Part shown: piece by piece, positions 4,750 through 61,192 of the stretch
How positions within the stretch are numbered: the first letter of the stretch is position 1
How the letters are laid out: the number at the start of each line of letters is the position of its first letter
Assembly: GCA_963725885.1 (NCBI GenBank)
Contig: CAVSAH010000003.1
Location: 449,697 to 513,696 of the forward strand
DNA: 64,000 nucleotides
Direction: 5' to 3'
DNA from: an uncultured Chloroflexia bacterium
GTDB lineage: Bacteria; Chloroflexota; Limnocylindria; QHBO01
The notes under the pieces: generated by a model
Told to the model about the DNA's origin: nothing
What the model saw: only the letters and a program-made list of their open reading frames with translations
Databases searched by the model: none
Position numbers and translations under genes: made by a program

Positions 4750-5262
4750 TCAGTTCGCCCGCTCGTCCTCTTCCGGGCCGTCGTGCCAGGAAGATGGCTC
4801 CGATGATCGCCACGAGCAGGAGCATGGCGATGATCTCGAACGGCAGCGCGTAGGTCGGTGAAGATCGCGGTGGCGATGGCGTCCACGCTGGCGGCGACGG
4901 CCTCGGTCGCGAGGCCCCAGTCGGTCTGGACGACGGCCCAGCCGACGAGCCCGGTCACGATCAGCGCGACGACGGCGGCGATCGGCAGCTGGCGGTGGAA
5001 CGGTGCCGGCAGGTTCGCGTCGCCGGCCTGGGTGAGCATGATCGCGAAGAGGATCAGGACGCTGATCGCGCCGAGGTAGATGAGCACCTGCGCGGCCGCC
5101 ACGATCGGCGCGCCGAGCAGCGCGTACATGCCGGCGAGTGACCCGAAGCAGATCATCATCGCGACGGCGCGAGTGGATGATGTTGCGGAGCGTGACGACG
5201 GCGAGTCCGCCCCCGATGACGCCGATGGCGAGCAGGAAGAAGAGGACGCTGGAGATGTCCAG
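4750..5262 (-). CDS. nuoJ: NADH-quinone oxidoreductase subunit J (3 frame breaks; start codon uncertain, CTG behind GGGAG)
   Basis: LDISSVLFFLLAIGVIGGGLAVVTLRNIIHS / AVAMMICFGSLAGMYALLGAPIVAAAQVLIYLGAISVLILFAIMLTQ.. / YALPFEIIAMLLLVAIIGAIFLARRP / EEDERAN*. Breaks near 5170, 4855 and 4775. There is no ATG/GTG/TTG in frame; GGGAG lies 9 nt upstream of the CTG at 5262. Confidence 0.8.
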   Translation of the reverse strand: MDISSVLFFLLAIGVIGGGLAVVTLRNIIHSRRRDDDLLRVTRRHVRAARRADRGGRAGAHLPRRDQRPDPLRDHAHPGRRREPAGTVPPPAADRRRRRADRDRARRLGRRPDRLGPRDRGRRRQRGRHRHRDLHRPTRCRSRSSPCSCSWRSSEPSSWHDGPEEDERAN

Positions 5263-5323
5263 GGTCGTGGGCTCCCGTTGCTGTTCGAGCGCTCGACGGC
5301 CCCGCTCGGGAGGCCGTCGCTCG

Positions 5324-5329
5324 ATTCTA
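5324..5329 (-). promoter_or_regulatory. Candidate internal -10 element (TAGAAT) in the only sizeable gap of the nuo cluster, upstream of nuoJ
   Basis: Minus strand reads ctgcgcTAGAATcgagcg inside the 150-nt gap 5263-5412. It is followed about 55 nt later by GGGAG and the nuoJ start. Confidence 0.3.
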
Positions 5330-5412
5330 GCGCAGGCTCGGCTTCGATCGGTCTCCCGCTCGTGCAGTGGTCAGGACGAGCGCCATCGAGCTCGGCCTGC
5401 CGCGACATCGGT

Positions 5413-7787
5413 CTAGCGGGTTGGTCGCTCCCGGTCGGACATCTCGAGGATGTCGAGCATGGGCAGGTCGCGCTGGTACTCGCTGAACTCGAACTCCGGG
5501 CCGCAGCGCAGCGCGTCGTACGGGCAGGCATCGGCGCAGATGCCGCAGAAGATGCAGCGGCTGATGTCGAGCTGGTAGGTCTCGAGGATGCGCGGGCGCG
5601 GCATGAGCGCGCCGACCGGGCACGTCTCCGCGCATCGGCCACATGACACGCACGGGGTCTCGTTCAGCGATACGAAGTCCGCGGTCGTGACGAGCGAGTC
5701 GAAGCCCTTGCCGATGAAGTCGTAGCAGCCGGCGCCGACGATCTCCTTGCAGACCTGGGCGCATCGGCCGCAGTCGATGCAGCGGGAGTAGTCGCGCAGG
5801 ATGAAGCTGTGGGTCTCGTCGCGGCCGTAGCCGTGGTTGACGCCGACGTACGGGTTGTCCTGGATCGAGCGCTCGTCGATCGCCATGTTCAGCGTCGTCT
5901 CGTACTCGATCGCCGCCTCGCGAAGGTCGCAGTGGCCGATCGCCTCGCAGGTGCACTGCAGGCAGCGTGACGCCTCGGCCATGGCCTGGTCGCCGGTGTA
6001 GCCGTGCTCGTACTCGTCGAAGTTCGTGCGGCGCTCGTCGGCGCCGAGCTTGCCCATGATCGCCTTCGGCTCCTTCACGTCGTCGGTGAAGGGGACGATC
6101 GTCAGGAAGTTCGGCTGCGGCTCGGTGACGATGCGGCGGACCTGCGGATCGTCGAGGTCGTGGCCGCGCAGCCAGTAGTCCATGGCGTACGACGCGCGCC
6201 GCGCCTCTCCGATCGCCTCGACGACGGTGGCGGCTCCGGTGCGCACGTCGCCCGAGGCGAAGATCTTCGGGACGTTGGTGCGGAAGATGTGCTCCTCGGC
6301 GACGAGGTTGCCGCGCCGGTCCACCTCGAGCCCCGCGCGAATCTCCTCGGGCTCGGACTCGATCCATGACAGCTCCGGGCCCTGACCGATGGCGCCCGAG
6401 CACGGTGTCGCACTCGACGATGAACTCGGTGCCGGGCATCGGCTCCGGCCGGCGGCGGCCCTGCGCGTCGGGCTCGCCCAGCTTCATGCGCTGGAACTCG
6501 ACGCCGGAGACCTTGCCGTTCTCGCCGGTGACCATGCGCGTCGGAGCGGCCTGGAAGATGAGGCGCGCGCCCTCCTCGATGGCCTCGTGCGCCTCGTCGG
6601 CTGGCCGGCATGTCCTTGAGGTCGCGGCGGTAGACGAGGGTCACCTCGGCTGCGCCCTGGCGGACGGAGGTCCGCGTGCAGTCGATGGCCGTGAATCCGC
6701 CGCCGATGACGACGACGCGAGCGCCCTTCAGGCGCGGAATGGGAATGCCGCGCGTCGAGTTGTAGAGGTTCTCGAGGGCGTTGACCATGCCGTCGGCGTC
6801 CTCTCCGGGGATGCCGAGCTCGTTCGACTTGTAGCAGCCGATGCCGACGTAGATGGCGTCGTACTCGTCGATGATGTCGCCGAGGTGGAAGTCGCGGCCG
6901 AGCCGCATGTTCGGCTTGAACGTCGCGCCGAGCTCCCAGACGTGGTTGAGCTCGCGGTCCATCCAGCCCTTGGGGAGGCGGTACTCGGGAATCCCGTAGC
7001 GGAGCATGCCGCCCTGCTCGGGATCGGCCTCGAACACGTCGCAGTGGTGGCCCCGCAGCTGGAGGTAGTACGCCGCGGTCATGCCGGCCGGGCCGGCGCC
7101 GATCACGGCCACCTTGCGTCCGCTGTCCGGCTCCTTCGGCCACGGGATCGGCGCGGGAGCATCGACCTCGAGGACCCGATCGGCGCAGTACCGATGCGAG
7201 TCGCGGATGGCGATGGCGGTGTCCACCTCCTCGCGGCGGCAGTGCGTCTCGCACGGTGCCGGGCAGACGCGCCCGAGGATGGCGGGGAAGGGAAGCGACC
7301 GCTTCAGGATCCGCGTCGCCTCTTCCCAGTTCCCGAGCGTGTTCTGCTTGAGGTAGCCGGGAATGTCGACGCGGGTCGGGCACTTGAACTGGCACGGCGG
7401 CAGGCAGTACGCGTCGTGGTCGCTGAAGATGAGCTCGAGGACCATGCGCCGGTTCTCGACGACGCGATCGGAATGGGTGGTGATGACCATCCCTTCCTCG
7501 ATGGCGGTCCCGCACGAGATCGGGGTGTCGTCGCGCCCTTCCACCTCGACGGTGCAGATGCGGCACGCGCCGTACGGGGCGAGCTTGGGCTCGTAGCACA
7601 GCGTCGGGATCTCGATCCCGAGGACCCGACAGGCCTGGAGGATGGTCTGGCCCTCCTCGGCCTCGACCTCGGCGCCGTTGATCGTGACGGTGATCTTCCG
7701 GGTGCCGGGGACCATCGGCCACAGCGGCGTGTAGTCATGCGGCTGCCCGTTGCCCGAGCCGTTGCCGTTCGTGCCTGAGAAGCTCAT
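5413..7787 (-). CDS. Chimeric Fe-S flavoprotein: NuoG/HydA-type 2Fe-2S domain + GltD/NfnB-like NAD(P)H-FAD oxidoreductase + NuoG-type 4Fe-4S domains + NuoI C-terminal half (2 frame breaks)
   Basis: MSFSGTNGNG..LCYEPKLAPYGACRICTVEVEG..ISCGT; CLPPCQFKCPTRVDIPGY..RVCPAPCETHC; VAVIGAGPAGMTAAYYL; VVVIGGGFTAIDC; KIFASGDVRTGAATVVEAIGEARRA; RCLQCTCEAIGHCDL; CIDCGRCAQVC; CVSCGRCAETCPVGAL; LDISRCIFCGICADACPYDAL..EFEFSEYQRD. Breaks near 6602 and 6398. Start is 9 nt after the nuoF-like stop. Confidence 0.8.
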
Positions 7788-7795
7788 CGGTCCCT

Positions 7796-9146
7796 CTACT
7801 CTAGCCCGGCCAGCGGCGGGGCGAGCGGGGGCACCTCGGCGGTGGTGCAGGAGCCGGCCAGGCAAACGCCGCGCTCCGCGTGGGCGCGGTACTCGTCGCC
7901 GAATCGGTCGAGCGTGGTGAGGATCGGGCCCGGCGCCAGGCTCTCGAGCTTGCAGAGCGCGGTGTCGCTCATCTTTCGGGACAGCTCGCGCAGGAGCGTG
8001 ATGTCGTCCGGCCGCGGGGTGGCGGCCAGGATGCGGTCGAGAGCCTCGACCAGGCGCTGGGTGCCGATGCGGCACGGCACGGCCTTGCCGCAGGCCTCTC
8101 GCGCGCTGAAGTCGACGAAGAAGCGTGCCGCGTCGACCATGCAGGTCGCGCGGTCGGCGACGAGCACCGAGCCCGAGCCGATGATGGCCCCCGCAGCGGT
8201 GAGCGGCTCGTAGTCGTAGGCGAGCGTGAACGAGCCGGCATCGATGGCGCCACCGCCGGGGCCTCCCACGAAGACGGCCTTCGGCTTCCCGGTCGGGCCG
8301 CCGGCAGCCTCGACGAGGTCGAGCAGCGAGATGCCCAGCGGCACCTCGATGAGCCCCGGCTCGGCCACGCGGCCCATGATCGTCACCAGCTTGGTGCCGC
8401 GGCTGGCCTCGGTGCCGATCGAGGCGAACGCCTCGGCCGAGTGCGAGGCGATCCAGGCCACGTGAGCGAGGGTCTCGGCGTTGTTCACGACGGTCGGGTC
8501 GCCGCGCAGGCCCGAGGCGGCGGGGTACGGCGGACGGATGGCCGGCATGCCGCGGTCCCCGGAGAGCGCGTTGAGCAGCGCGGTCTCCTCACCGGCGACG
8601 TACGCGCCGGAGCCCTCCCACACCGAGAGCTGGATGCTCGTGTCGGTGCCCATCACGAGGTAGCCCGCCAGGTGCGCCTCGGTCGCCTCGCGCACCGCGG
8701 TGCGCAGCCGGTCGATGGCAAGCGTCCAGTCGCGACGGACGGCGATGATCGCCTCTCCGGCGCCGATGGCGTAGGCGGCGATGAGCAGGCCCTCGATGAC
8801 CAGGTGAGGGTTGCCCTCGACCAGTGCGCGGTCGCCGAGCGCGCTCGGGATCCGCGCCCATGACATTGGCGACGGCCACCTTCCGCGACGCGTCGACGCC
8901 ACGCGCCACGCGCCACTTGTCGGCTGTCGGGAACCCCGACCCGCCACGGCCGCGCAGGCCCGCTGCGTCGATCTCGGCGATGACCTCGCCGGGCGAGAGC
9001 TTGGTCAGCGCCCGCTCCAGCCCCGCATAGCCGCCGTGCTCGCGATAGCTGGCGAGGCTGCCGGGGTCGACCCGACCGATGTCGGTGAGCACGCGCGGCT
9101 CACCGCCGGTGAGGATTCGAATCTGGGGCGAGATGGCACTGGTCAT
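7796..9146 (-). CDS. nuoF: NuoF-like NADH dehydrogenase flavoprotein subunit (1 frame break; one N3-cluster Cys replaced)
   Basis: GLRGRGGSGFPTADKW; GSGAYVAGEETALLNALSG; IRPPYPAASGLRGDPTVVNNAETLAHV; GTKLVTIMGRVAEPGLIEVPLG; EACGKAVPCRIGT (canonical CGKCxPCR); TALCKLESLAPGP. Break near 8848. ATG overlaps the upstream TGA by 1 nt. Confidence 0.85.
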
Positions 9147-10000
9147 CAGCTCACCGTTGCCTCGGCGGGCCTGGAGCCGGCGGCCCGGGAGTCGGCGGCC
9201 CGGCGCTCGGTCAGCAGATGGCGCGCCTTCTCCGGGGTCAGCGGGCCGTAGACGAGCGTGTCGATGCGCATGGCCGGCACGATCGAGCCGGAGGCCACGT
9301 CCGGCGCGAGCTGCAGGCTGAAGGCGCCGTCGGGGGTCTCGGAGCCGGCGCGGATCCCGAGCTCATCCTCGACGGCCGCGAGCAGCTCCTGGCCGCCCGC
9401 GAAGCGGCACGCGGCGCAGTCGCACACCGTGACGAGGTGGCCGGTGACGGGCAGGAGACGGAACCCGCCGAGTCCTGCCGCGCCGAAGACCTGCGCCCAG
9501 TGGATGCTCATCCGGTCGCTGACGTGTCGGAGCGCGCGCTCGGGCAGGTAGCCGTAGCGCTCCTCGATCACGCGGAAGATCGCCACCAGCGCCTCCGGCC
9601 TGCCGTCGTGCGCGTCGATCGTCGCGTCGACGAAGGCGGTGTCGACCTCGGCATCCCAGCGCGCCGCGTTGCGCATCGGCCTCGCCGGCTGACCGGCGCG
9701 TCGCCAGGCGTTGGGGTCCTTGCGCTCGTCGTAGATCTCCGGCATGCCGTAGCGGATCCGGTTGCCCTGCGAGTCGAACCCGCTCATGTCGATCGCCTCG
9801 ACCGGGCAGACCTGGGCGCACTGGAAGCAGACCTCGCACTTGTGATCGCCGAACGGGTCGTAGATGAGGTCGAGCCGGCCTCGCCAGCGCTCCGGCATCT
9901 GCGGCCGCTCCTCGGGGTACTGGCGCGTCACCTTCGGGGCGAAGAAGTTGCGGAAGGTGGTGGCCATGCCCTTGGCCATCCCGGAGCCGGGAATCCTCAT
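9146..10000 (-). CDS. Chimera of the NuoI N-terminal half (one 4Fe-4S motif) with a NuoE-like thioredoxin-fold domain
   Basis: Intact 284-aa ORF. N-terminus reads GMATTFRNFFAPKVTRQYPEERPQMPERWRGRLDL..CEVCFQCAQVCPVEAI (NuoI leader plus first CxxCxxCxxxCP). From about residue 125 it reads ALVAIFRVIEERYGYLPERALRHVSDRM..VTVCDCAACRFAGGQELL..TLVYGPLTPEKARHLL (NuoE fold). Confidence 0.8.
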   Translation of the reverse strand: MRIPGSGMAKGMATTFRNFFAPKVTRQYPEERPQMPERWRGRLDLIYDPFGDHKCEVCFQCAQVCPVEAIDMSGFDSQGNRIRYGMPEIYDERKDPNAWRRAGQPARPMRNAARWDAEVDTAFVDATIDAHDGRPEALVAIFRVIEERYGYLPERALRHVSDRMSIHWAQVFGAAGLGGFRLLPVTGHLVTVCDCAACRFAGGQELLAAVEDELGIRAGSETPDGAFSLQLAPDVASGSIVPAMRIDTLVYGPLTPEKARHLLTERRAADSRAAGSRPAEATVS

Positions 10001-10013
10001 CGGTCGCGGGCCC

Positions 10014-26489: not shown

Positions 26490-27689
26490 GTGCCCGACCA
26501 GGACCCCACAACCCCATCCGATTTCGAGGTGGCCGCGCGCGCCGCGGCTGCCGGCTACCGGTTCGGCGAGATCGAGGTACCCGCCACGATCGCCCGCGCC
26601 ATCGACGAGATGGGATTCGTCACGCCGACGGAAGTGCAGGCCGGCGCCATCCCGCCGCTGCGGCGCGGCGAGGATCTCATCGGCCAGGCCCAGACGGGCA
26701 CCGGCAAGACGGCCGCCTTCGGCATCCCGATCGTCGAGAAGATCGACCCGGGCAGCCAGCACGTCCAGGCCCTGATCCTGACCCCGACCCGCGAGCTGTG
26801 CGTGCAGGTCACCGAGGAGGTCGCCCGCCTCGGCCGCTTCCGTGGCATTCGGACCGTGGCCATCTACGGCGGCTCATCCATGGATCGGCAGATCGACGCC
26901 CTCAAGCGCGGCGCGCAGGTCGTGATCGGCACACCGGGGCGGGTGCTCGACCTCGTGCGTCGCCGCGAGCTGCAGCTCGACCGGGTCCACACCGTCATCC
27001 TCGACGAGGCCGATCGGATGCTCGACATGGGCTTCATCGTCGACGTCGAGACGATCCTGGCTCGCTGCCCGCGCGAGCGACAGACCGCGCTCTTCAGCGC
27101 CACGATGCCGTACGCCATCCTCCGCATCTGCGACCGGTTCATGAGGCGCAACCCCGCGCACGTGACCGTGCGGCCGGACCTGCGCACCGTCGAGACGGTG
27201 CGACAGCTCGTGTACTTCGTCGCCGAGCAGGACAAAGTGGCCGCGCTCGTCGAGCTCAACGAGCATTACGGGTTCGATCGGCTGCTCGTCTTCCGGCACA
27301 CGCAGATCGGCGTCGACCGACTCGCCGCCACCCTGAAACGCCGCGGGAAGAACGTCGCTGCGCTCCACGGGGGTCTCAGCCAGCGCGAGCGCGACCGCAC
27401 CCTGGCGGCCTTCAAGGCGGGCAAGATCCAGTTCCTCATCGCGACGAACGTCGCCTCGCGCGGCCTCGACATCACCGACCTGCCCTACGTGCTGAGCTTC
27501 GACATCCCCGAGGACGCCGACACGTACGTCCATCGCATCGGCCGCACCGGGCGGGCCGGCAAGGAGGGGACTGCCATCACCTTCGTGGGGGAGTGGGACC
27601 TGGTCGCCTGGGAGGCCATCCGCGGCGAGGTCGGGGCCAACGTCGAGGAGGGCCAGCTCGACCTGTATGGACCCGAACCTTCGGGATGA
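26490..27689 (+). CDS. DEAD-box ATP-dependent RNA helicase
   Basis: 399 aa from the GTG: PTEVQAGAIP (Q motif), AQTGTGKTAAF, PTRELC, TPGRVLD, ILDEADRMLDMGF, SAT, LIATNVASRGLDI, YVHRIGRTGRAG. The track ORF from 25734 is an antisense read-through of zupT. Confidence 0.92.
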   Translation: MPDQDPTTPSDFEVAARAAAAGYRFGEIEVPATIARAIDEMGFVTPTEVQAGAIPPLRRGEDLIGQAQTGTGKTAAFGIPIVEKIDPGSQHVQALILTPTRELCVQVTEEVARLGRFRGIRTVAIYGGSSMDRQIDALKRGAQVVIGTPGRVLDLVRRRELQLDRVHTVILDEADRMLDMGFIVDVETILARCPRERQTALFSATMPYAILRICDRFMRRNPAHVTVRPDLRTVETVRQLVYFVAEQDKVAALVELNEHYGFDRLLVFRHTQIGVDRLAATLKRRGKNVAALHGGLSQRERDRTLAAFKAGKIQFLIATNVASRGLDITDLPYVLSFDIPEDADTYVHRIGRTGRAGKEGTAITFVGEWDLVAWEAIRGEVGANVEEGQLDLYGPEPSG

Positions 27690-28335
27690 GGGGCTGGGCG
27701 GAAGTCGGCCAGTGACGCGGAAGCCGGATCTGCCGGCCGCCCTCAGCACGCTGGTTCCGCAGCGCCCGACTCCGGCACGCGCCGAGGTCGTCAGCGTCGA
27801 GTGGCTCTTCGAGCCGGCCTGGCCGGGGCGGCGGCTCATGGCCCGGCTGACCGATGGCGAGGTCACCCTCACCGATGAGACCGGTGAGCTCGCGTCGGAC
27901 GAGGACGCGGCCTCGGCGTCGATCATCCTCGCGGCGGGTCTCTCGGCCACGAGCGCCATGGTCGAGGTCATCTGGTCGCCGCTCGTGGCCAGCGCTCGGG
28001 GTGCCGGCGTCGTGGCGATCGATCTCGTTGAGCTCGACGGTGAGTGGCTGGCCGACGTCCCCTTCGCAGAGCGTCGTCGCCTGCTCGAGTCGATCGTGGA
28101 GCCGGGTGAGCGCCTTCGCATCGGGCCGCTCGTGAAGCACCCCGTCGATCGCTGGCTCGCCGGCTGGCATGAGAGCGGATTCACCCATTTCGTTGCACGG
28201 CATCAGAACTCCCCCTACCTGCCCGGGGAGGCCAACCCCGAGTGCCTGGAGGTCTCGATCGGGCCGCCGGCCCCGCCGGGGATGATGGCCCGGCTGACGG
28301 GCAGCCGCGAACGGGTGCGCCGCGTCCGCGACTGA
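27667..28335 (+). CDS. ATP-dependent-DNA-ligase-like protein lacking the catalytic motifs (start uncertain: ATG 27667 or GTG 27711)
   Basis: VEWLFEPAWPGRR replaces ExKxDGxR. VAIDLVELDGEWLADVPFAERRRLLESIV matches ligase motif IIIa and the following helix. GFTHFVARHQNSPYLPGE replaces EGxxxK..S.Y.PG.R. Paralogous to 58825-59520. Confidence 0.6.
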   Translation: MDPNLRDEGLGGSRPVTRKPDLPAALSTLVPQRPTPARAEVVSVEWLFEPAWPGRRLMARLTDGEVTLTDETGELASDEDAASASIILAAGLSATSAMVEVIWSPLVASARGAGVVAIDLVELDGEWLADVPFAERRRLLESIVEPGERLRIGPLVKHPVDRWLAGWHESGFTHFVARHQNSPYLPGEANPECLEVSIGPPAPPGMMARLTGSRERVRRVRD

Positions 28336-53752: not shown

Positions 53753-55486
53753 ATGGCACGAGCTTCGTCCTTCGCCCGACTGGCGGAGGTGGCGGCAGCC
53801 GTCGGTGCGACGCGCAGCAAGCTTGCCAAGCGCGACGGCCTCGCCGCGTACCTCGCCGAGCTGCCCGCATCCGATCTCGTCGCAGCCACGGCCTTCTTCG
53901 CCGGCCGGCCGCTGCGTGACCCGACGGCCAAGCTGGGCATGGGCTGGGTCCAGCAGGGCGCCGCGCTCGCGGCCGCGGCGGACGCCTCCCCTGATGCGCT
54001 CCGAGAGGCATACCTGCGCCACAGCGACTTCGGGGACGCTGCGGCGGACCTCCTGGCCGGCCGCGAGGGCTCGGGGCTGACGGTCCGCGAGGTCGCAGAC
54101 GCCTTTGCCGGCATCGCCGCGGCCGGCTCCTTCGACGAGCGCGTGGGGCTCCTGACGGCCCTCTTCCGGCGCGCCGACTCGGACGAGGCGCGGTTCATCG
54201 GCCGCGTCATCTCGCGCGAGACCCGCATCGGCCTGCGCGAGGGGCTGCTCGAGGAAGCCGTGGCTGCAGCGTTCGACGCCCCGCTCGACGAGGTTCGGCG
54301 TGCCCACATGCTGACCGGTGAGATCGGTGAGGCCGCGCTGCTGGCTCGTCGGGGGCGGCTCGCCGATGCGGCGCTGCGGCCGGGCCGTCCGATCCGATTC
54401 ATGCTGGCGTCGCCGGTGGCCGACGCCGCCGAGGTCATGCGCCGGGTAGGCGAGGAAGCCTGGATCGAGGACAAGTACGACGGTATCCGCGCGCAGCTGC
54501 ATCTCGAGCCCGGCGGGCGACCTCGGCTGTTCAGCCGCGACCTCAACGACGTCACGCGCTCGTTCCCCGAGATCTCCGATGCGGCATCGAAGCTGGCAAG
54601 CGACGCCCCACTCGTCGTCGACGGCGAGCTCGTGCCGTGGCGCGCGGGATCCGTGCTCGACTTCGCCTCGCTCCAGACCCGGCTCGGGCGCGTGCGGCCG
54701 TCGACCGAGCTGCTTGCGGAGGTGCCCGTCGTCCTCGTTGCGTTCGACCTGCTCCATCAGGGCGGGCGCGACCTCATCGAGGTGCCGCTCCGCGAGCGCC
54801 GCGCCGCGCTGGAGGCCCTCGACCTGCCGGGTCGCACCGGCGAGCGCGTGCTCCTCTCGCACCTCGCGACCGCGAAGGACGCTGCCGGGGTGGATCGGCA
54901 CTTCGATGACGCGCGCGAACGCCACAACGAGGGGCTGATGGTCAAGGATCCCGACTCGGCGTACCAGCCCGGGCGGCGCGGGCTCGGCTGGCTCAAGCTG
55001 AAGAAGGCCCTCGCAACGCTCGACTGCGTCGTGGTTGGGGTCGAGTGGGGCCACGGCAAGCGCCGCGGCGTTCTGTCCGACTACACCTTCGCGGTGCGCG
55101 AGACCGATGCGTCCGATGCCAAGCTCCTCACCATCGGCAAGGCCTACACCGGCCTGACCGATGCGGAGATCGCCACGATGACGGAGCAGTTCCTGGCAAC
55201 GACGCTGCGCGACCATGGGCGATACCGCACCGTTGTGCCCGAAGTGGTCGTCGAGATCGCCTTCGACCGGATCATGCGCTCGTCCCGCCACCGTTCGGGA
55301 TTCGCGATGCGGTTCCCGCGCATCGTTCGCGTCCGGGACGACAAGACGCCCGCCGAGATCGACACGCTTGGCGGCGTCGAGGCCCTCTTCTCCGACCAGG
55401 CGTCCGGCCGGATCCTGCTTGCGACCGGCACGAAGGGCGAGACCGAACGGATCGCCGCGGTCGGGGAGGCGCCGCCCGACGCCTGA
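53753..55486 (+). CDS. ATP-dependent DNA ligase (Lig1/LigB-type with N-terminal DNA-binding domain), all catalytic motifs present
   Basis: Intact 577 aa: WIEDKYDGIRAQLH (motif I), VVDGELVPW (III), VAFDLL (IIIa), EGLMVKD (IV), GWLKLKK (V), RFPRIVRVRDDK (VI). Confidence 0.92.
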   Translation: MARASSFARLAEVAAAVGATRSKLAKRDGLAAYLAELPASDLVAATAFFAGRPLRDPTAKLGMGWVQQGAALAAAADASPDALREAYLRHSDFGDAAADLLAGREGSGLTVREVADAFAGIAAAGSFDERVGLLTALFRRADSDEARFIGRVISRETRIGLREGLLEEAVAAAFDAPLDEVRRAHMLTGEIGEAALLARRGRLADAALRPGRPIRFMLASPVADAAEVMRRVGEEAWIEDKYDGIRAQLHLEPGGRPRLFSRDLNDVTRSFPEISDAASKLASDAPLVVDGELVPWRAGSVLDFASLQTRLGRVRPSTELLAEVPVVLVAFDLLHQGGRDLIEVPLRERRAALEALDLPGRTGERVLLSHLATAKDAAGVDRHFDDARERHNEGLMVKDPDSAYQPGRRGLGWLKLKKALATLDCVVVGVEWGHGKRRGVLSDYTFAVRETDASDAKLLTIGKAYTGLTDAEIATMTEQFLATTLRDHGRYRTVVPEVVVEIAFDRIMRSSRHRSGFAMRFPRIVRVRDDKTPAEIDTLGGVEALFSDQASGRILLATGTKGETERIAAVGEAPPDA

Positions 55487-55499
55487 GCGCTCGGCGCGC

Positions 55500-55508
55500 T
55501 GCTACGAT
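55500..55508 (+). promoter_or_regulatory. Extended -10 element TGCTACGAT 7 nt upstream of the ATG at 55516 (leaderless)
   Basis: gcgcTGCTACGATcgcgcgcATG. Confidence 0.45.
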
Positions 55509-55515
55509 CGCGCGC

Positions 55516-56088
55516 ATGACATTCATGGGAGGCGTGGAGGAATTCCATGAAATCGCCGCCGAGGTCACGACGTCGGGCTATCGCGTCTCCGGATTCGTGC
55601 GGACCCGGTTCGAGCGGGTCGCCCTGATCCTCAACAGCCTCGACCATACCCACCTGGTCATGGAGGACGTCACCATCCGGGAGCTCGACGACGAGGCGAC
55701 GTCCTGGACCGCTGCCTCCGCGACGATCCCGCTCGACGAGATCCTGTTCTTCGCCGCCAGCCTTTCCGGCGCCACCTCCATGGACGCGATCGTGGTTCCC
55801 AAGAGGCCCTTTCCCGCAACCGTCGGCCTTCCGCCCTTCCGGCTGGCGGGCACGATGTACGTGCCCGAGTCGGTCGAGTCGCCGGCGATCGTGATCACCG
55901 TCAACCCGGACGCCTTCATCGTTATGACCGATGCCTCGGTCACCTGTCCCGTGCACCCGGTGCTCAACGCCACGTACCCGGTCGTCGCCTTCCAGCGGAG
56001 GCGGGTGCACGTCTTCTCCGTGGGGATCCCGGCCGAAGGCGCCGAGGCTGTCGGCGACGATCCCCGGCACGGGATCAGCTGGGAGTGA
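55516..56088 (+). CDS. Hypothetical protein, 190 aa, two similar beta-rich halves
   Basis: Terminal part of track ORF 55045-56088 from MTFMGGVEEFHEI... Halves YRVSGFV..HLVMEDVTI..ILFFAA and FRLAGTM..FIVMTDASV..VHVFSV align by eye. Confidence 0.5.
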   Translation: MTFMGGVEEFHEIAAEVTTSGYRVSGFVRTRFERVALILNSLDHTHLVMEDVTIRELDDEATSWTAASATIPLDEILFFAASLSGATSMDAIVVPKRPFPATVGLPPFRLAGTMYVPESVESPAIVITVNPDAFIVMTDASVTCPVHPVLNATYPVVAFQRRRVHVFSVGIPAEGAEAVGDDPRHGISWE

Positions 56089-56107
56089 TCGGCGGCCGGA
56101 GGGCTGC

Positions 56108-56863
56108 CTAGGGCCCCCTGTCGGCGATCGGCGCGAAGCCGACCTCCTCGTACGGCTCGGCCGCGTCGAGGATGGCCTCGACGATGCGCGCCGCACCGGC
56201 CTGGTTGAGCCGCATCACACGTCCATAGGCATTCGCCCACCACGGGGCGTTGTCGCTGGTGACGACCTCCTCGGTCGGCTCCTCGAGGACCACCTTCGAG
56301 TGCGCATGCGGGAAGACGATGGCGGCGCGGAGGTGAATCTCGGGCAGCGCCATCTCCTCGGCCCAACGCGCCACGCCGAAGGCGAGCGCGGTCGCGTCGG
56401 TGGTCGGATTGGTCCGGCACTTGATCCAGCCGTGGCGGCTGTGCGTGTCGTACTCCCAGGTCTTCCCGTGCAGCCGATACGTCCCGTGCCACTCGCGGAC
56501 GGTGATGACCCGGGTTCCGCCGGGACCAACCAGGATCGCGTCGAGGCGCGCGAGGTCGCGGACGGGAAGTCGCGGCTGGATCACCAGGGTGTAGTCGTCG
56601 CCGAGCGTCCCCGTCAGGAGGCCGATGAGCGCATCGGATCTGCGCCGCGAGTGGTCCGGCTGCATGACCCGCCACAGCCAGGCGCTCCCGACGCCGACGC
56701 CGATGGCCGCGGTGCACGCGAGGAGCCCGACGCGCACCGGTGAGGGCGGCCCGAGGAACGCGAGGAGGATCGAGATGGCACCGACGGCGATCATGGCCAG
56801 GGCCACCATCCGTGGCCGGCGCTTTCGCGAGGCCGTGAGGGCTTCGGGCCTGATCACGCGCAT
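56108..56863 (-). CDS. Membrane-anchored NERD (nuclease-related) domain protein
   Basis: Intact 251 aa with two N-terminal TM helices, then LLTGTLGDDYTLVIQPRLPVRDLARLDAILVGPGGTRVITVREWHGTY (NERD pattern). Confidence 0.65.
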   Translation of the reverse strand: MRVIRPEALTASRKRRPRMVALAMIAVGAISILLAFLGPPSPVRVGLLACTAAIGVGVGSAWLWRVMQPDHSRRRSDALIGLLTGTLGDDYTLVIQPRLPVRDLARLDAILVGPGGTRVITVREWHGTYRLHGKTWEYDTHSRHGWIKCRTNPTTDATALAFGVARWAEEMALPEIHLRAAIVFPHAHSKVVLEEPTEEVVTSDNAPWWANAYGRVMRLNQAGAARIVEAILDAAEPYEEVGFAPIADRGP

Positions 56864-56883
56864 GACGGCAGACCCCGGTGGAC

Positions 56884-56889
56884 TAGGCT
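56884..56889 (+). promoter_or_regulatory. -10 element TAGGCT 6 nt upstream of the OsmC-like GTG (leaderless)
   Basis: ggacTAGGCTgatgagGTG. Confidence 0.35.
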
Positions 56890-56895
56890 GATGAG

Positions 56896-57390
56896 GTGAC
56901 GACGCGGATCAGCGCCAGCGTGGACGTGGAGGCCGGCACGGTGCTGGCTGCGACCCTGGCGGGCAGGACGCTGGCCATCGCCGGCGATCCGCCCGAGGGA
57001 GACGGCTCCGCCCCGGGTCCCAAGGAGGCGCTCCTCGCGTCTCTCGCCGCCTGCACGGCGCTCGACGTGACCAGCATCCTCCGTAAGAAGCGGCAGGGAC
57101 CGAGCAGCTACGAGGTGGTGGTCACCGGCGAGTCCGATCCCGAGCCGCCGCGCGTCTTCACCTCGATCCTCGTCGAGCATCGGGTGTCGGGCGCGGTCGC
57201 TCCAGAGCCGCTGCGGCGTTCGATCGAGCTGTCCGCGACGCGGTACTGCCCCGTCAACGCCATGCTGTCGGCGGTTGCCCGCATCGAGCATCGCTACCTC
57301 CTCCTCGATGCGTCCGGTGGCGTCTTCGAGGCCACGGTCGCGGTTGTCGGCCCGGACCGCGAGGTCCGGGTAGGGGAACCTGGCGCCTGA
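56896..57390 (+). CDS. OsmC/Ohr-family peroxiredoxin-like protein
   Basis: Intact 164 aa: GPKEALLASLAACTALDVTSIL..FTSILVEHRVSG..SIELSATRYCPVNAML (the two conserved Cys). Confidence 0.8.
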   Translation: MTTRISASVDVEAGTVLAATLAGRTLAIAGDPPEGDGSAPGPKEALLASLAACTALDVTSILRKKRQGPSSYEVVVTGESDPEPPRVFTSILVEHRVSGAVAPEPLRRSIELSATRYCPVNAMLSAVARIEHRYLLLDASGGVFEATVAVVGPDREVRVGEPGA

Positions 57391-57777
57391 TCAGGACGCG
57401 CTGCGCAGCTCCTCCCCGCCGAGCGCCTGCTCGACGGCGGCCCGGAACGCGTCCAGGTCGAACGGCTTCGGCACGACGGGCCCCAGCGGGGCGAGCTCAC
57501 TGAGCCGCTCCCGGCTCGCGGCCGAGACGAAGATGGCGGGAATGCCCGGCCACGCGGAGCGCAGGAGCTCGGTGATGTCGCCGCCGTCGCCATCGGGCAG
57601 CATCACATCGATCACCATCAGGTGCGGCAGCGCGACGTCCATGAGATCGCCGAGCTCGACGATCCGCGTGCAGGTGACGACGGTGAAGCCCATCTCGCGG
57701 AGGAGATCGGCTTCCAGGGCGGCGATATCGGGGTCGTCCTCGAGGACGTAGGCACGGGGGGTCGCGGGCTGGGTCAT
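57391..57777 (-). CDS. Stand-alone response-regulator receiver domain protein
   Basis: 128 aa from MTQPATPRAYVLEDDPDIA..HLMVIDVMLPDGDGGDI..AIFVSA..VVPKPFDLD. The track ORF to 57861 is a read-through. Confidence 0.8.
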   Translation of the reverse strand: MTQPATPRAYVLEDDPDIAALEADLLREMGFTVVTCTRIVELGDLMDVALPHLMVIDVMLPDGDGGDITELLRSAWPGIPAIFVSAASRERLSELAPLGPVVPKPFDLDAFRAAVEQALGGEELRSAS

Positions 57778-57839
57778 CGGCGTCCAGTCTCGTGCGCCGT
57801 GCTCGTGAGGTCTATGACCCATGGGGGTGGTACTGATGG

Positions 57840-57872
57840 GGTACACCGGTCCCCTTTGCAACCCGGTGTACC
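57840..57872. promoter_or_regulatory. 10-bp perfect inverted repeat GGTACACCGG-N13-CCGGTGTACC in the receiver/ku divergent region
   Basis: Read directly from the sequence. It ends 12 nt before GGAGGAGG and 33 nt before the ku ATG. Confidence 0.45.
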
Positions 57873-57905
57873 ATTCCCGCCCGCGGAGGAGGAAACGCAG
57901 GACCC

Positions 57906-58811
57906 ATGGCGCGATCGATGTGGCGGGGAGCCATCCAGTTCGGGCTCGTGACGATCCCGGTCAAGCTCTACCTGGCCACCGAGCAGGGAGGCATCGGCTT
58001 CAACCTGCTCCACGCGACCTGCCTGAACCGGATCCAGATGAAGGTGTACTGCCCGCACCACGACGAGATCATTCCGCGCTCGGAGACGGTGCGCGGGTAT
58101 GAGTGGAGCAAGGGCAAGTACGTGGTCGTCACCGAGGAGGACATCGACTCGGTCCCGCTCAAGACGATGCGCGCCATCGAGATCGAGATGTTCGTCAAGG
58201 CCTCGCGCGACAACGCCGGCACGCAGTTCGTCAAGCAGGCCTACTACCTCGAGCCGGAGCAGATCGGCGCGAAGGCGTTCTACCTGCTGAAGTCGGTCCT
58301 CGCCGAGCAGAACAAGAGCGCCATCTGCAAGATCGTTCTCAAGGACCGCGAGCAGCTGGCCGCCCTGAACCCCTTCGCCAAGACCCTCCTGCTGACCACC
58401 CTGCACTGGCCCGACGAGGTCCGGGCGATCGACGAGCTGGCCCTGCCCGAGGACGAGATCGAGATCAAGTCCTCCGAGAAGAAGATGGCCGAGCAGCTCG
58501 TGGCCAGCATGACCGGCGAGTTCGCGCCCGATGACTACGCCGACGACTATCGCCAGGCCCTCATGGCCGTCATCGAGAAGAAGGTCGCGGGCGAGAAGCC
58601 GGAGCCGCAGGTCCGTGCCGAGCCCACGAACATCACCGACCTGATGGCCGCGCTCGAGGCATCGGTTGCCGCCGCGCGAACCGACCGAACCGCCGCCAAG
58701 ACGGAGGCCCCCGCGAAGGCCGCGGCCAAGCCGAAGCGCGCGCCGAAGAAGGCCGCCGCCAAGGCCGCCACCTCGGAGGAGCCTCGCCAGCGCCGTCGCA
58801 AGACGGCCTGA
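57906..58811 (+). CDS. ku: Ku protein (non-homologous end joining) with Lys/Ala-rich basic tail
   Basis: Intact 301 aa: MWRGAIQFGLVTIPVKLY..YEWSKGKYVVVTEEDI..IEIEMFV..YYLEPE..GAKAFYLL.. and tail AAKPKRAPKKAAAKAA. Confidence 0.93.
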   Translation: MARSMWRGAIQFGLVTIPVKLYLATEQGGIGFNLLHATCLNRIQMKVYCPHHDEIIPRSETVRGYEWSKGKYVVVTEEDIDSVPLKTMRAIEIEMFVKASRDNAGTQFVKQAYYLEPEQIGAKAFYLLKSVLAEQNKSAICKIVLKDREQLAALNPFAKTLLLTTLHWPDEVRAIDELALPEDEIEIKSSEKKMAEQLVASMTGEFAPDDYADDYRQALMAVIEKKVAGEKPEPQVRAEPTNITDLMAALEASVAAARTDRTAAKTEAPAKAAAKPKRAPKKAAAKAATSEEPRQRRRKTA

Positions 58812-58824
58812 CGTCGACGGGGCC

Positions 58825-59520
58825 GTGCCCGGCGAGCAGCTCGGCCTTCCGATCGAGGCGCCCACTGGTGCGCCCGAGCGCCTGCCGACCCGTATCACGC
58901 CGATGCAGCCGACGACCGGTGCCGCACCGTTCGACGACCCTGCCTACCTCTTCGAGCCGTGGTGGCCCGGCGTCCGGGCCGTGGCCTGGGTCGACGGCCA
59001 CCGGCTGATCCGGCTCCGCGCCGCGGGCCTGGCCGATGCGCTCCTCGCGTTCCCCGAGCTCGCCGAGGAGCTTCCGGAGCGCCTCGACGACGACGGGTCG
59101 GTTCTCGACGGATGGCTTCTCGCACTGGACGACGGTGGATGGCTCGACACGGAGCTCCTGCGCCGGCGCCTGGCCGGTGACCTTGGCGCGGGCCGACCGG
59201 CGTTCGTGGCGACTGACATGCTGTGGTCCGGCGGCGTCACGTGGATGCGCCGCCCATTTGCCGCGCGCCGCGAACGGCTCGAGGAGGTACTGCGCGACGG
59301 GGACCGCTGCGTCGTGACCCACGCGCTCGTCGGTGATGGGACCCTGCTTGCCGAGGCGCTGGGCCGATTCGGGATCGGCGGCATCTCGGCCCGGCGACTC
59401 GATGCCCGCTACCGCGCGGGGAATGCCGGCGATGCCTGGCTCAGGCTCCCGGTTCGGGCCGCCGAGATCGTGACGCGTCCGCAGCTCGCCCTCATCCAGC
59501 GGCTGCCGCTCGCCGGCTGA
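58825..59520 (+). CDS. LigD-ligase-domain-like protein with all nucleotidyl-transferase motifs substituted (start GTG 58825 or ATG 58903)
   Basis: ITPMQPTTGAAPFDDPAYLFEPWWPGVR (KxDG replaced by WWPG), VLDGWLL (DGE replaced by DGW), FVATDMLW, RRERLEEVL, GIGGISAR (EGxxxK replaced by GGISAR), DAWLRLP (WxKxK replaced by WLRLP). Starts 14 nt after ku. Confidence 0.65.
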   Translation: MPGEQLGLPIEAPTGAPERLPTRITPMQPTTGAAPFDDPAYLFEPWWPGVRAVAWVDGHRLIRLRAAGLADALLAFPELAEELPERLDDDGSVLDGWLLALDDGGWLDTELLRRRLAGDLGAGRPAFVATDMLWSGGVTWMRRPFAARRERLEEVLRDGDRCVVTHALVGDGTLLAEALGRFGIGGISARRLDARYRAGNAGDAWLRLPVRAAEIVTRPQLALIQRLPLAG

Positions 59521-59521
59521 C

Positions 59522-59535
59522 GCCTGGGCCCAGGC
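59522..59535. other. 14-nt perfect palindrome GCCTGGGCCCAGGC filling the gap between convergent stops
   Basis: Lies exactly between the TGA at 59518-59520 (+) and the TGA at 59536-59538 (-). Possible short bidirectional hairpin or binding site. Confidence 0.3.
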
Positions 59536-60180
59536 TCAGGCTCCGGGCTCCAGCATCGACGTGGCGTGCTCCAGCTTGGAGCGGCCGTCCGTCGTCAGGC
59601 CCGGCCGCGCGGCGAGGGCTGCGGCCAACTCGGCAAGCTGCGCCGGCGCGCCGTCGGCGCCAGCGTCGACGAGCTCCAGCTCCACGGCGGCGAGCCGTCC
59701 GCGCACCTCTCCGGCGGCGTCGACCACGGTGACCGCATCGAGGCTCAACGTGCCGAGCCGGTGCTGCCCGATCTCCACTGTGCGCTCCGTGCGGCGCTGG
59801 AGGAGGCGGAGCCGCTCGACGAGCGGCGAGCCCGCGGAGAGACTGAGGAGGTGGTCCCGGGCATCACTCGGTGGCCAGTCCCGCGGGTCGAACGAGTCCG
59901 TGGCCGGTCCCTCCAGCTCCGGACGGGTGTGGATCCCGTCTGCGGGGCCGCCACGCGCCGGCCCCTTGAGCGAGACGATCGGCCCTCGACCGCGATCCCG
60001 ATGGCGGCATGCCCACCCGTTCGCGGCAAGGTGGCCCCAGATGGTGTCGAGGTAGATGTCGAGCTCGTCGACCGTGAGCGCGGATCCGAGCCGCGCCGGG
60101 CCCAGGGTTGCGGCCGTGCGGAGTGAGTCGAGTGGGGCCTGTCCGTCGGCGAGGAACTTGACCTCGACCTCAGTCGCCAT
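59536..60180 (-). CDS. CYTH-domain protein (triphosphate tunnel metalloenzyme: class IV cyclase or triphosphatase)
   Basis: 214 aa from MATEVEVKFLADG (ExExK signature)..LDIYLDT..CRHRD..VSLKGP..HTRPELE..RTERTVEI..LSLDAVTV..AAVELELV. The start overlaps the WYL gene stop by 11 nt. Confidence 0.75.
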   Translation of the reverse strand: MATEVEVKFLADGQAPLDSLRTAATLGPARLGSALTVDELDIYLDTIWGHLAANGWACRHRDRGRGPIVSLKGPARGGPADGIHTRPELEGPATDSFDPRDWPPSDARDHLLSLSAGSPLVERLRLLQRRTERTVEIGQHRLGTLSLDAVTVVDAAGEVRGRLAAVELELVDAGADGAPAQLAELAAALAARPGLTTDGRSKLEHATSMLEPGA

Positions 60181-61192
60181 AGCGCTCGGCGGCCCGCCGG
60201 ACGGAGTCCGCGATCGCGTCCCGCAGCTCGGCCGGCTCCACGACCTCGGCATCCCCGCCCCAGGACAGGATCCACGACTGGATCTCGACGATCCCGGCCA
60301 CAGTCACCGCGAGCTCGACGCCACCATCGTCGAGGTCCGTCAGGCGCTGGGAGCGATGCCACACCGCCTCCCGCACCCGGTGCGCGACGGACCGGTCGAA
60401 CCTGACCCGGATCTCGACGGCGGGCGTCCCCTCCGACGACCAGATGCCCCACGAGTTGGCCAGCCAGGCGTCGGGATCGAAGTCTCCCGGGATCTCGTAT
60501 CGGTCGGTCGTCAGCGTGGCGCTGCGGATGCGCTCGACCTTGTACGTGCGCATGGCGCCGGCCGGCTCGTCGTAGCCGATGAGGTAGACGCTGCGCAGCG
60601 CGGCGTCGGGCTCCAGGAAGTACGGATGGACTCGAGTCTTCTTGCGCGGGGCCGAGCCAGGGTCGTAGTCGAGCTCGACGACCCGGCCCTCGGCCCAGCC
60701 ACGAGCGACCGCGCTGAACGAGCGGCTGAACGGCTCGTCGGCGTCGTGGGCCTGGATGGTGAGCATGGTCGCGGCCACGTGGCGAGCGATCGGTTGCGGG
60801 AGCGCGTCGGACAGCTTGGTGAAGGCGCTCACCACCGCGGTGTCGTACTGGTCGGACCATCTGGCGATGAGGCGTGAGGCGAGAAAGAGCACGATGGCCT
60901 CGGGCACCGACAGGTGCAGCGGCGGCAGGAAGAACTTGCGGTCGATGCCGTACCGACCGCGGCCCGCCTGGTAGACGGGCACGCCGAGCTCGTCGTCGAG
61001 GGCATTGATGTCGCGATAGACCGTCCGCGTCGTCATGCCGGTGAGGCGCGCGATCTCACTCACGGGCACGCCAGCCTCGGTGCTGCCCTTCGAGTACAGG
61101 ATCGACGCGACGTTCAGCAGGCGCGCGAGGCGATCCCGCTTGCGGCCGATGCGGTCATCGGCCCCGTCGTCCCACCCGTCCCACTCGTCCAT
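60170..61192 (-). CDS. HTH + WYL domain transcriptional regulator (PafBC/BrxR-like architecture)
   Basis: 340 aa from MDEWDGWDD..RLARLLNVASILYSKG..VPVSEIARLTGMTTRTVYRDINALDDELGVPV..; WYL region VELDYD...KTRVHPYFLEPDAALRSVYLIGYD..MRTYKVERI; C-terminal WCX-like domain. The track ORF to 62554 is an antisense read-through of the antiporter gene. Confidence 0.8.
   Translation of the reverse strand: MDEWDGWDDGADDRIGRKRDRLARLLNVASILYSKGSTEAGVPVSEIARLTGMTTRTVYRDINALDDELGVPVYQAGRGRYGIDRKFFLPPLHLSVPEAIVLFLASRLIARWSDQYDTAVVSAFTKLSDALPQPIARHVAATMLTIQAHDADEPFSRSFSAVARGWAEGRVVELDYDPGSAPRKKTRVHPYFLEPDAALRSVYLIGYDEPAGAMRTYKVERIRSATLTTDRYEIPGDFDPDAWLANSWGIWSSEGTPAVEIRVRFDRSVAHRVREAVWHRSQRLTDLDDGGVELAVTVAGIVEIQSWILSWGGDAEVVEPAELRDAIADSVRRAAERYGD

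Follow-up and report, generated by a model that had tools for sequence, protein, structure and literature searches.

A lysine-free relative of the LigD ligase domain is the conserved partner of Ku in Limnocylindria

[quoted passage not shown] In a window of 64,000 nucleotides (nt) of genomic DNA from an uncultured Chloroflexia bacterium of the class Limnocylindria (GenBank assembly GCA_963725885.1, contig CAVSAH010000003.1, positions 449,697 to 513,696), we found that the gene which follows ku encodes a 231-amino-acid (aa) protein, named dLig here, that is a pseudo-enzyme derived from the LigD ligase (LIG) domain and not a ligase. dLig is Ku's conserved partner throughout the class, and end joining in Limnocylindria probably departs in its organisation from the Ku-LigD pair of the textbooks. 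A first-pass annotation of the window, made from the letters without database searches, had described the neighbour of Ku as a ligase-domain homologue with substitutions in every catalytic motif. The two genes, given in coordinates of the window, are as follows.

57906-58811, + strand: ku, bacterial Ku, 301 aa (TIGR02772, E 1.8e-79; PF02735, the Pfam Ku family, E 1.9e-39)
58825-59520, + strand: dLig, 231 aa, an OB-less, lysine-free, dead homologue of the LigD ligase nucleotidyltransferase (NTase) domain

Ku also gave a Ku-like match in PHROG (E 4.4e-53) and bears a lysine-rich C-terminal extension, with 27 lysines in total. The dLig reading frame opens with a GTG codon at 58825, 13 nt past the ku stop codon (TGA) and not 14 nt as first counted. 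This start is taken to be correct because close homologues open MPGEQL... with ATG at the same position.

Positions of the catalytic motifs in dLig were assigned by alignment with the M. tuberculosis LigD-LIG structures 1vs0 and 6nhx. The motif strings quoted in the first-pass annotation were all found in the protein, and the alignment with 1vs0 bore out its account of them, as the Lys and Asp of motif I, the Glu of motif III, the Glu and Lys of motif IV and both Lys of motif V have been replaced.

58951-58977, + strand: motif I remnant FEPWWPGVR (residues 43-51), canonical ExKxDGxR
59101-59121, + strand: motif III remnant VLDGWLL (residues 93-99), canonical DGE, aligned with VLDGE
59203-59226, + strand: motif IIIa-like FVATDMLW, retained, canonical FxxFDLL
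59377-59397, + strand: motif IV remnant GGISARR (residues 185-191), canonical EGxxxK, aligned with EGVIAKR
59434-59451, + strand: motif V remnant AWLRLP (residues 204-209), canonical WxKxK

In motif I, EPWWPGVR aligns with EGKWDGYR of M. tuberculosis LigD, in which the catalytic lysine is K481 (PMC8656161); the nucleophilic lysine is replaced by Trp46 and the aspartate by Pro48. Among 131 family sequences W46 and G49 were invariant while W47 and P48 were conserved in at least 90%. The glutamate of motif III is Trp in the dLig of the window, and other members of the family have T, F, V or M there. Motif IV has lost its glutamate and carries Arg in place of Lys, with S188, A189 and R190 conserved in at least 90% of the sequences. 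In motif V, WVK aligns with WLR, the first lysine having become Arg and the second Pro; W205 and R207 are invariant here and P209 reaches at least 90%. Across the family the positions of the Arg of motif I and of the Glu of motifs III and IV are variable, and Arg consistently stands in place of the motif IV and motif V lysines (R190 and R207). Positive charge is therefore kept at the phosphate-contacting positions, a pattern that would be compatible with residual binding of phosphate or DNA.

The dLig of the window contains no lysine at all, which has a probability of about 0.002 given the average of 2.6% Lys in neighbouring proteins. Likewise, 159 of 240 full-length family members were devoid of lysine, and the alignment of the 240 holds no conserved Lys column. 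An alternative nucleophilic lysine, which had been named as an observation that would overturn the pseudo-enzyme interpretation, was rejected on these grounds. Sequencing or consensus error was likewise rejected as the origin of the substitutions, since they recur in hundreds of homologues; the first-pass annotation had already considered it improbable. None of the attributes of a catalytic ligase is present in dLig, be it the motif I Lys, the residues of motifs III-V, an OB domain or a score above the curated hidden Markov model cut-off. With the adenylatable lysine, the other catalytic residues and the OB domain lost, dLig cannot perform any ligation step.

We considered whether dLig might be a cryptic enzyme or a nucleotide sensor, binding ATP/AMP or some other nucleotide, using chemistry that does not depend on lysine, or working with an OB domain supplied in trans. 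Motif IIIa (FVAxDLL) and an SxRRLDxxYRxG segment have been kept, and Arg occupies the phosphate-contacting Lys positions, which speaks for such a role. We nonetheless regard it as very unlikely: the protein is without Lys, the Asp and Arg of motif I and the Glu of motifs III and IV are lost or not conserved, and an invariant Trp-Trp-Pro-Gly occupies the place of the nucleotide-binding loop. In addition, no His or Cys is conserved, and no new cluster of polar invariants is found beyond the standard positions of the fold.

The homology of the protein encoded next to ku to the LigD ligase domain, first proposed from the order of its motifs, was confirmed by an NCBIfam search, in which dLig matched the LigD-type models PRK09632 (E 1.5e-23) and TIGR02779 (E 2.3e-15) as well as the LigC model PRK08224 (E 1.8e-13). 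Its best solved relatives were the M. tuberculosis LigD ligase-domain structures 6nhx (E 6.8e-12) and 1vs0 (E ~1e-11). The scores fall far below the curated cut-offs (56.6 against 227.75 bits for TIGR02779 and 83 against 989 for PRK09632), and the match to Pfam PF01068, at 25.5 bits, is just short of the gathering score of 26.2. The matched spans were 3-183 of 302 positions in TIGR02779 and 473-658 of 781 in PRK09632. As these matches end with the NTase half of the models, the OB domain is absent from dLig, and the protein in fact stops 22 residues past motif V, with no OB-fold domain carrying motif VI.

An AlphaFold2 model of dLig built on 131 family sequences showed a single domain with a predicted local distance difference test score (pLDDT) of 91.6 and a predicted template modelling score of 0.86. 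Residues 1-20 were predicted to be disordered, with pLDDT below 50 for residues 1-13. When this model was compared with the PDB using Foldseek, all 50 matches listed were DNA ligases or ligase-containing complexes. The best of these were 4eq5 and 2cfm (E 8e-14 to ~1e-13, TM-score 0.72-0.74, root-mean-square deviation 2.4-2.6 Å), and 6nhx of M. tuberculosis LigD was matched with an E-value of 4e-10. This check of the fold, suggested at the outset, places the model within the ligase NTase superfamily, and dLig is predicted to be a genuine ligase NTase fold devoid of the OB domain.

Among known proteins, the LIG domain of LigD (1VS0/6NHX; TIGR02779; PRK09632) is the closest sequence family, being 27-28% identical to dLig in structural alignment. 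The two have in common the NTase fold, the genomic partnership with Ku and the motif order I, III, IIIa, IV, V. In contrast to LigD, dLig is without catalytic residues, lysine, OB domain and motif VI, no POL or PE domain is fused to it or encoded nearby, and conserved peptides have been added at both its N- and C-termini. LigC (PRK08224), the backup ligase of mycobacterial NHEJ and base excision repair, resembles dLig in being a stand-alone member of the same ligase clade without POL or PE domains; it is, however, an active enzyme that has both NTase and OB domains and a length of about 350 aa, whereas dLig is 231 aa long, consists of the NTase domain only and is dead.

In order to establish how widely dLig occurs, 5.8 billion proteins were searched and 874 relatives were retrieved. 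The best 120 of these 874 are 229-256 aa long (all but two being 229-238 aa) and 71-100% identical to dLig, or 71-82% when the exact match is left out; those that carry a taxonomic name are metagenome-assembled genomes (MAGs) of Candidatus Limnocylindria or Chloroflexota. An exhaustive profile search showed that members of the FEPWWPG family with as little as about 45% identity keep this length and the dead motifs, and the nearest live LigDs are 35-41% identical to dLig. In contigs representing one GTDB genome per species, at least 276 loci, each from a species-level genome, encode a member of the family. Neighbourhoods were surveyed in the best 80 of these 276 loci, to which the counts below refer unless another is stated. 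The great majority of the 80 belong to Limnocylindria or Chloroflexota MAGs, and the few with other taxonomic labels are probably mis-binned.

This survey of ku neighbourhoods, which had been proposed as a check, found ku directly upstream of dLig and on the same strand in 78 of the 80 loci, the remaining two beginning at dLig itself at a contig edge. The gap between the genes is mostly 11-17 nt, and there is a 4-nt overlap in one locus (L083). dLig thus adjoins ku and is co-oriented with it in the manner of a gene of an NHEJ operon. The domains that usually accompany the ligase in LigD are missing: tblastn searches with the non-ligase parts of full-length LigDs recovered no POL or PE domain, be it in the 64-kb window or in the 10 kb flanking 81 loci on each side. 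Pairwise ratios of nonsynonymous to synonymous substitution (dN/dS) against 14 relatives were 0.17-0.37 for dLig and 0.12-0.45 for Ku, with one misaligned outlier among the Ku comparisons. These values point to purifying selection on dLig similar to that on Ku. The early proposal of a pseudo-enzyme kept beside Ku is strongly supported by the fold, the replaced catalytic residues, the linkage and the dN/dS values. dLig has the hallmarks of a pseudoenzyme, being homologous to an enzyme, devoid of the essential catalytic residues and subject to purifying selection.

Since dLig is shorter than the LIG domain of LigD and its Pfam score lies just under the threshold, it could also be viewed as a decaying LigD fragment, that is a pseudogene, or as an artefact of assembly or gene calling. 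This view can be considered effectively refuted. The frame is intact and a constant length of about 230 aa is maintained in hundreds of MAGs from many studies, dN/dS is well under 1, as for Ku, and the fold is predicted with confidence. Moreover, the invariants specific to the family (WWPG and the terminal motifs) are gains and not decay.

We propose that dLig has a non-catalytic role as a scaffold or adaptor where Ku has bound DNA ends, with strand sealing left to another ligase, and we assign this reading a probability of roughly 0.55. In such a scheme dLig would be co-transcribed and probably translationally coupled with Ku, the preserved ligase fold would keep a surface contacting Ku, DNA or both, and two terminal peptide motifs would tether other factors. 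The N-terminal motif may link Ku-bound ends to the beta-sliding clamp and the enzymes that ride on it, and strands could be sealed in trans by LigA or, in this lineage, by a three-domain ligase encoded 2.4 kb upstream. Binding to Ku or DNA, binding to the clamp and the identity of the sealing ligase are the conditional parts of the model.

It has been shown that the core and C-terminus of M. tuberculosis Ku bind the ligase domain of LigD directly (PMC9638933), and the contacts have been mapped to D522 and K579/L580 of LigD in a preprint (bioRxiv 10.64898/2025.12.12.693941). The equivalent positions in dLig lie next to the conserved D89/D90, before motif III, and within an invariant helix R148-R149-x-x-L152.

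The enzyme that may seal the ends is encoded upstream of ku.

53753-55486, + strand: three-domain ATP-dependent DNA ligase (LigB/Lig1-type), 577 aa, with PF04675, PF01068 and PF04679 (PRK03180, E 1.5e-108)

The motifs EDKYDGIR, DGELV, EGLMVKD and WLKLKK are intact in this protein, and its three Pfam domains (DNA_ligase_A_N, DNA_ligase_A_M and DNA_ligase_A_C) are all present. Ending 2.4 kb before ku, it looks as competent as had been stated in the first-pass annotation and is a candidate sealing enzyme. The additional suggestion that dLig acts as an adaptor recruiting this particular ligase held in part. The ligase is syntenic in 52 of the 53 close-subfamily loci for which at least 7 kb of upstream sequence were available, but it is not found near the Ku-dLig pair in a deeper subfamily (L082, L083). 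There, the pair is the only conserved element of the neighbourhood and is flanked by urease and sulfatase genes. Recruitment of the upstream ligase is accordingly weakened as a universal role; since only the dyad is kept in the deeper subfamily, it is Ku and dLig that make up the functional unit, and the ligase upstream is a neighbour specific to one lineage. The L083 locus also contains two ku genes (4833-5762 and 9051-10004) 3 kb apart, of which only the second is followed by dLig.

Both termini of dLig carry short conserved peptides that are central to the proposed scaffold.

58837-58854, + strand: short linear motif QLGLPI at the N-terminus (residues 5-10), within a predicted disordered region and resembling a beta-clamp-binding hexapeptide
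59476-59511, + strand: C-terminal tail RPQLALIQRLPL, family consensus RPxLALLQRLPL, situated where the OB domain would begin

The peptide of the window dLig that spans the N-terminal motif reads MPGEQLGLPIEA, the family consensus being EQLDLPI. Within an otherwise variable tail, the family maintains QL[D/S/P/G]L[P/S/D/Q][I/F/L] at residues ~4-10; Q5 and L6 are invariant and L8 is conserved in at least 90% of 131 sequences. The motif was present in 211 of 240 members, against a background rate of 1.2e-4 per residue for the regular expression in open reading frames from these loci. Of the 29 proteins without it, most are 203 aa long, having been called from an internal Met, and a few are shorter truncated calls or carry a variant motif such as ERLSLGL. 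In the one case that was checked (L082, 9899-10000), the in-frame sequence upstream of the 203-aa call encodes AEQLPLRF, and the 203-aa database entries are probably calls cut at the internal Met of a PM motif. The C-terminal tail was found at or near the C-terminus of 239 of the 240 members, with P219, L227 and P228 invariant in the 131 sequences and a pLDDT of ~81-86.

Clamp-binding motifs follow the consensus QL[S/D]LF or QxxLF, and Hda binds the clamp tightly through its N-terminal hexapeptide QLSLPL (PMC12309361; PMC9690074). The QLxLx[I/F/L] motif resembles these sequences in its Q-L-x-L-x-hydrophobic pattern, in lying at the extreme terminus within a disordered segment, where QLGLPI too is found, and in being the sole conserved element there, which makes it a candidate clamp site. 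It differs from them in that position 6 is usually Ile and position 3 often Pro or Gly, and no dead ligase is known as a client of the clamp. In a set of 123 representative LigD-like proteins, an N-terminal QLxLx[LIF] or QLSLF motif was confined to the Lys-less ones. One protein of this set from Dehalococcoidia (P0166, 327 aa, 0 Lys) opens with MPQLSLF, which contains the exact clamp-binding pentapeptide, and the near-variant QLSIEL was seen in two live relatives (P0182 and P0188).

The terminal motifs could instead bind a partner other than the clamp, such as Ku, the three-domain ligase, a polymerase or another hub, in which case dLig would still be a scaffold. We hold this to be possible, if tentative. 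The prevalence of Ile at position 6 and of Pro or Gly at position 3, unlike QL[S/D]LF, would be accounted for, as would the C-terminal RPxLALLQRLPL tail, for which no counterpart is known; the literature searched contained no link between the clamp and bacterial NHEJ. On the other hand, the tight-binding QLSLPL of Hda likewise has six residues with Pro as the fifth, as QLDLPI does (PMC12309361), and related dead ligases bear exact QLSLF and QLSLRL sequences at the same N-terminal position. As regards Ku as the partner, paralogues that are not linked to Ku have kept the motifs, for which reason a general hub is the more likely partner.

These paralogues were identified in Limnocylindrales (L084, 8001-8807; L085, 8001-8765) as a clade of lysine-poor, NTase-only proteins with FEPxWGGxR as motif I, AGVLARH as motif IV and LWRxIP as motif V. 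Their termini (N-terminal MTDQLSLRL and C-terminal PVLALIRRLPL) are like both motifs of dLig, and the C-terminal tail is common to dLig and this FEPxWGG clade. The gene is not beside ku; it stands alone between genes for a Tricorn-like peptidase and an ABC transporter.

Instead of a scaffold, dLig might be a negative regulator or decoy that occupies the ligase site on Ku or caps 5'-phosphate ends, so that end joining is restrained, or ends are protected, until for example stationary phase or recovery from desiccation. Its fold is the same as that of the domain bound by Ku in M. tuberculosis, it has no catalytic capacity, and stoichiometric co-expression with Ku would be as fitting for an inhibitor as for an adaptor; conserved genes nearby also include those for a WYL/PafC-like regulator and a response regulator. 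It would nevertheless be unusual for a pure inhibitor to be strictly coupled 1:1 with its target in an operon in at least 276 species. Two conserved terminal motifs point to recruitment of partners over plain occlusion, and a paralogous clade with the same motifs exists apart from Ku. We therefore consider the decoy role to be unlikely.

Several points weigh against the scaffold proposal and its link to the clamp. All function ascribed to dLig is deduced from sequence. The QLGLPI of the window has Ile at position 6 and Gly at position 3, and Gly at this position lowers clamp binding in E. coli (PMC12309361). Conservation of the regions equivalent to the M. tuberculosis contacts is weak evidence for Ku binding because the RRxxL helix is conserved in ligases generally. 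As the FEPxWGG clade is not beside ku, the terminal motifs are not specific to Ku, and a core function independent of Ku is possible. The upstream ligase is unlinked in the deeper subfamily. Finally, the searches were local, and if an active LigD or LigC is encoded elsewhere in the genome, dLig may be an accessory to it and not its replacement.

The occurrence of dead ligases extends beyond dLig itself, and a second one is present in the window.

27667-28335, + strand: dLig2, 222 aa, a more degenerate second dead ligase paralogue

The gene for dLig2 overlaps the end of a DEAD-box helicase gene (~26490-27689). The motif I of dLig2, FEPAWPGRR, lacks both Lys and Asp; the protein matches PRK09632 with an E-value of 5.5e-13 and shares 24% identity with dLig and ~30% with the FEPxWGG clade. 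In another Chloroflexota lineage (L086, 5097-7059; L087, 2258-4220), a 352-aa homologue with NTase and OB domains is encoded 25 nt 3' of ku. It is annotated as 'DNA ligase', its motif I (FDVAWDGVR) is without Lys, its motif V (DWLLIA) has lost both Lys, and its N-terminus reads VELDLPF. Lysine-less ligase homologues are thus paired with Ku beyond the dLig family as well, at different stages of degeneration. Among the LigD-LIG-like representatives P0157-P0263, many are without the motif I Lys (FEVLWDGVR, FEPAWDGVR, FEIRWDGVR, FEIDWDGSR), and the Lys-less ones that carry a taxonomic name are Chloroflexota. A neighbour-joining tree of live and dead LIG domains was used descriptively, as it lacks the strength needed to count how often the lysine was lost independently. 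The first-pass annotation had not noticed the absence of the OB domain, the terminal motifs, dLig2 or the fact that LigD-like proteins without lysine are more widespread in Chloroflexota.

A broader hypothesis can be formulated from these observations, namely that Limnocylindria, and more widely Chloroflexota, have re-wired NHEJ such that a dead-ligase scaffold with a clamp tool-belt replaces LigD as the obligate partner of Ku, the module having radiated into several paralogous families that work with other partners. dLig would then dock on Ku-bound ends while its N-terminal motif brings in the beta-sliding clamp together with polymerases and a ligase. For now we regard this wider hypothesis as doubtful.

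In the close subfamily, the Ku-dLig pair is embedded in a conserved block with the order three-domain ligase, DUF6812-like, NERD-like, OsmC, receiver-only response regulator, Ku, dLig, CYTH and HTH-WYL-WCX regulator. The remaining genes characterised in the window are listed here.

55516-56088: DUF6812-like gene, between the three-domain ligase and ku, in the conserved block
56108-56863, - strand: NERD-like gene, in the conserved block
57391-57822, - strand: response regulator, a stand-alone receiver domain (PF00072, E 4.2e-12), divergent from ku
59536-60180, - strand: CYTH-domain protein (PF01928, E 7.3e-8), convergent with dLig
60170-61192, - strand: HTH-WYL-WCX (PafC-like) transcription regulator (WCX, E 5.7e-21; WYL, E 6.1e-11)

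The start of the response-regulator gene at 57822 was placed by alignment via a conserved MGHRP, and the CYTH gene probably starts at MATEVEV. Across the 80 loci the response regulator was conserved in 59, CYTH in 59 and the HTH-WYL-WCX regulator in 65. The conserved block (53753-61192) suggests a stress or DNA-damage regulon. No match was obtained in PADLOC for dLig, Ku, dLig2, the NERD-like protein or CYTH, nor in PHROG for dLig, and an anti-phage defence function or phage origin of dLig was rejected on this basis.

The 83-nt gap (57823-57905) that separates the divergent response-regulator gene from ku contains a further conserved feature.

57829-57844, no strand assigned: GTAC-rich palindrome GGTACTGATGGGGTAC, consensus GGTACCC-ATG-GGGTACC, conserved in an alignment of ku upstream regions

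A regular expression found the palindrome in 40 of 74 loci, and it is a candidate operator. Past it comes a conserved GTGTACCAT element; most relatives then have a conserved GC-rich leader, of which the window has a shortened form. Rfam gave no match for the conserved ku leader, and no sigma-70 promoter or intrinsic terminator was called in a scan around ku-dLig.

The structural part that we propose for dLig has precedents of two kinds. Ligase-dead proteins made in the laboratory, namely an active-site mutant of M. smegmatis LigD with LigC sealing and catalytic mutants of human Lig4, reportedly still support repair structurally. The concept is similar, in that a ligase body at the Ku-bound end does the organising and another ligase the sealing, but these are full-length mutants whereas dLig is naturally fixed, shortened and present lineage-wide. 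The eukaryotic proteins XRCC4, XLF and PAXX are comparable by analogy, as non-enzymatic partners of Ku or the ligase that organise end joining; they show no homology to dLig and have different folds.

Full-text searches of the literature found no description of a Ku-associated dead ligase, an NHEJ pseudo-ligase or a clamp-NHEJ link in bacteria, in agreement with the remark in the first-pass annotation that no Ku-associated dead ligase was known to it, and nothing relevant was found on NHEJ in Limnocylindria. A large comparative survey of NHEJ classes genomes by the presence of domains, and the words lysine and inactive are absent from its text. In source databases, members of the dLig family are annotated as 'bifunctional NHEJ protein LigD', 'ATP-dependent DNA ligase' or 'hypothetical protein'. 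Surveys that score NHEJ from Ku and a LIG-domain match would, because of such annotations, misclassify these lineages.

A whole environmentally abundant class, the Limnocylindria of soil and freshwater, thus keeps Ku coupled to a ligase-fold protein that does not ligate. The members of the dLig family are small (~230 aa), confidently predicted as a single domain and easy to approach by biochemistry, and the putative clamp motif would make a connection between Ku and the beta-clamp directly testable. If dLig is a scaffold, it would be an analogue of XRCC4, XLF and PAXX, and the first natural bacterial counterpart of the structural role of an NHEJ ligase, which is so far known only from engineered ligase-dead mutants.

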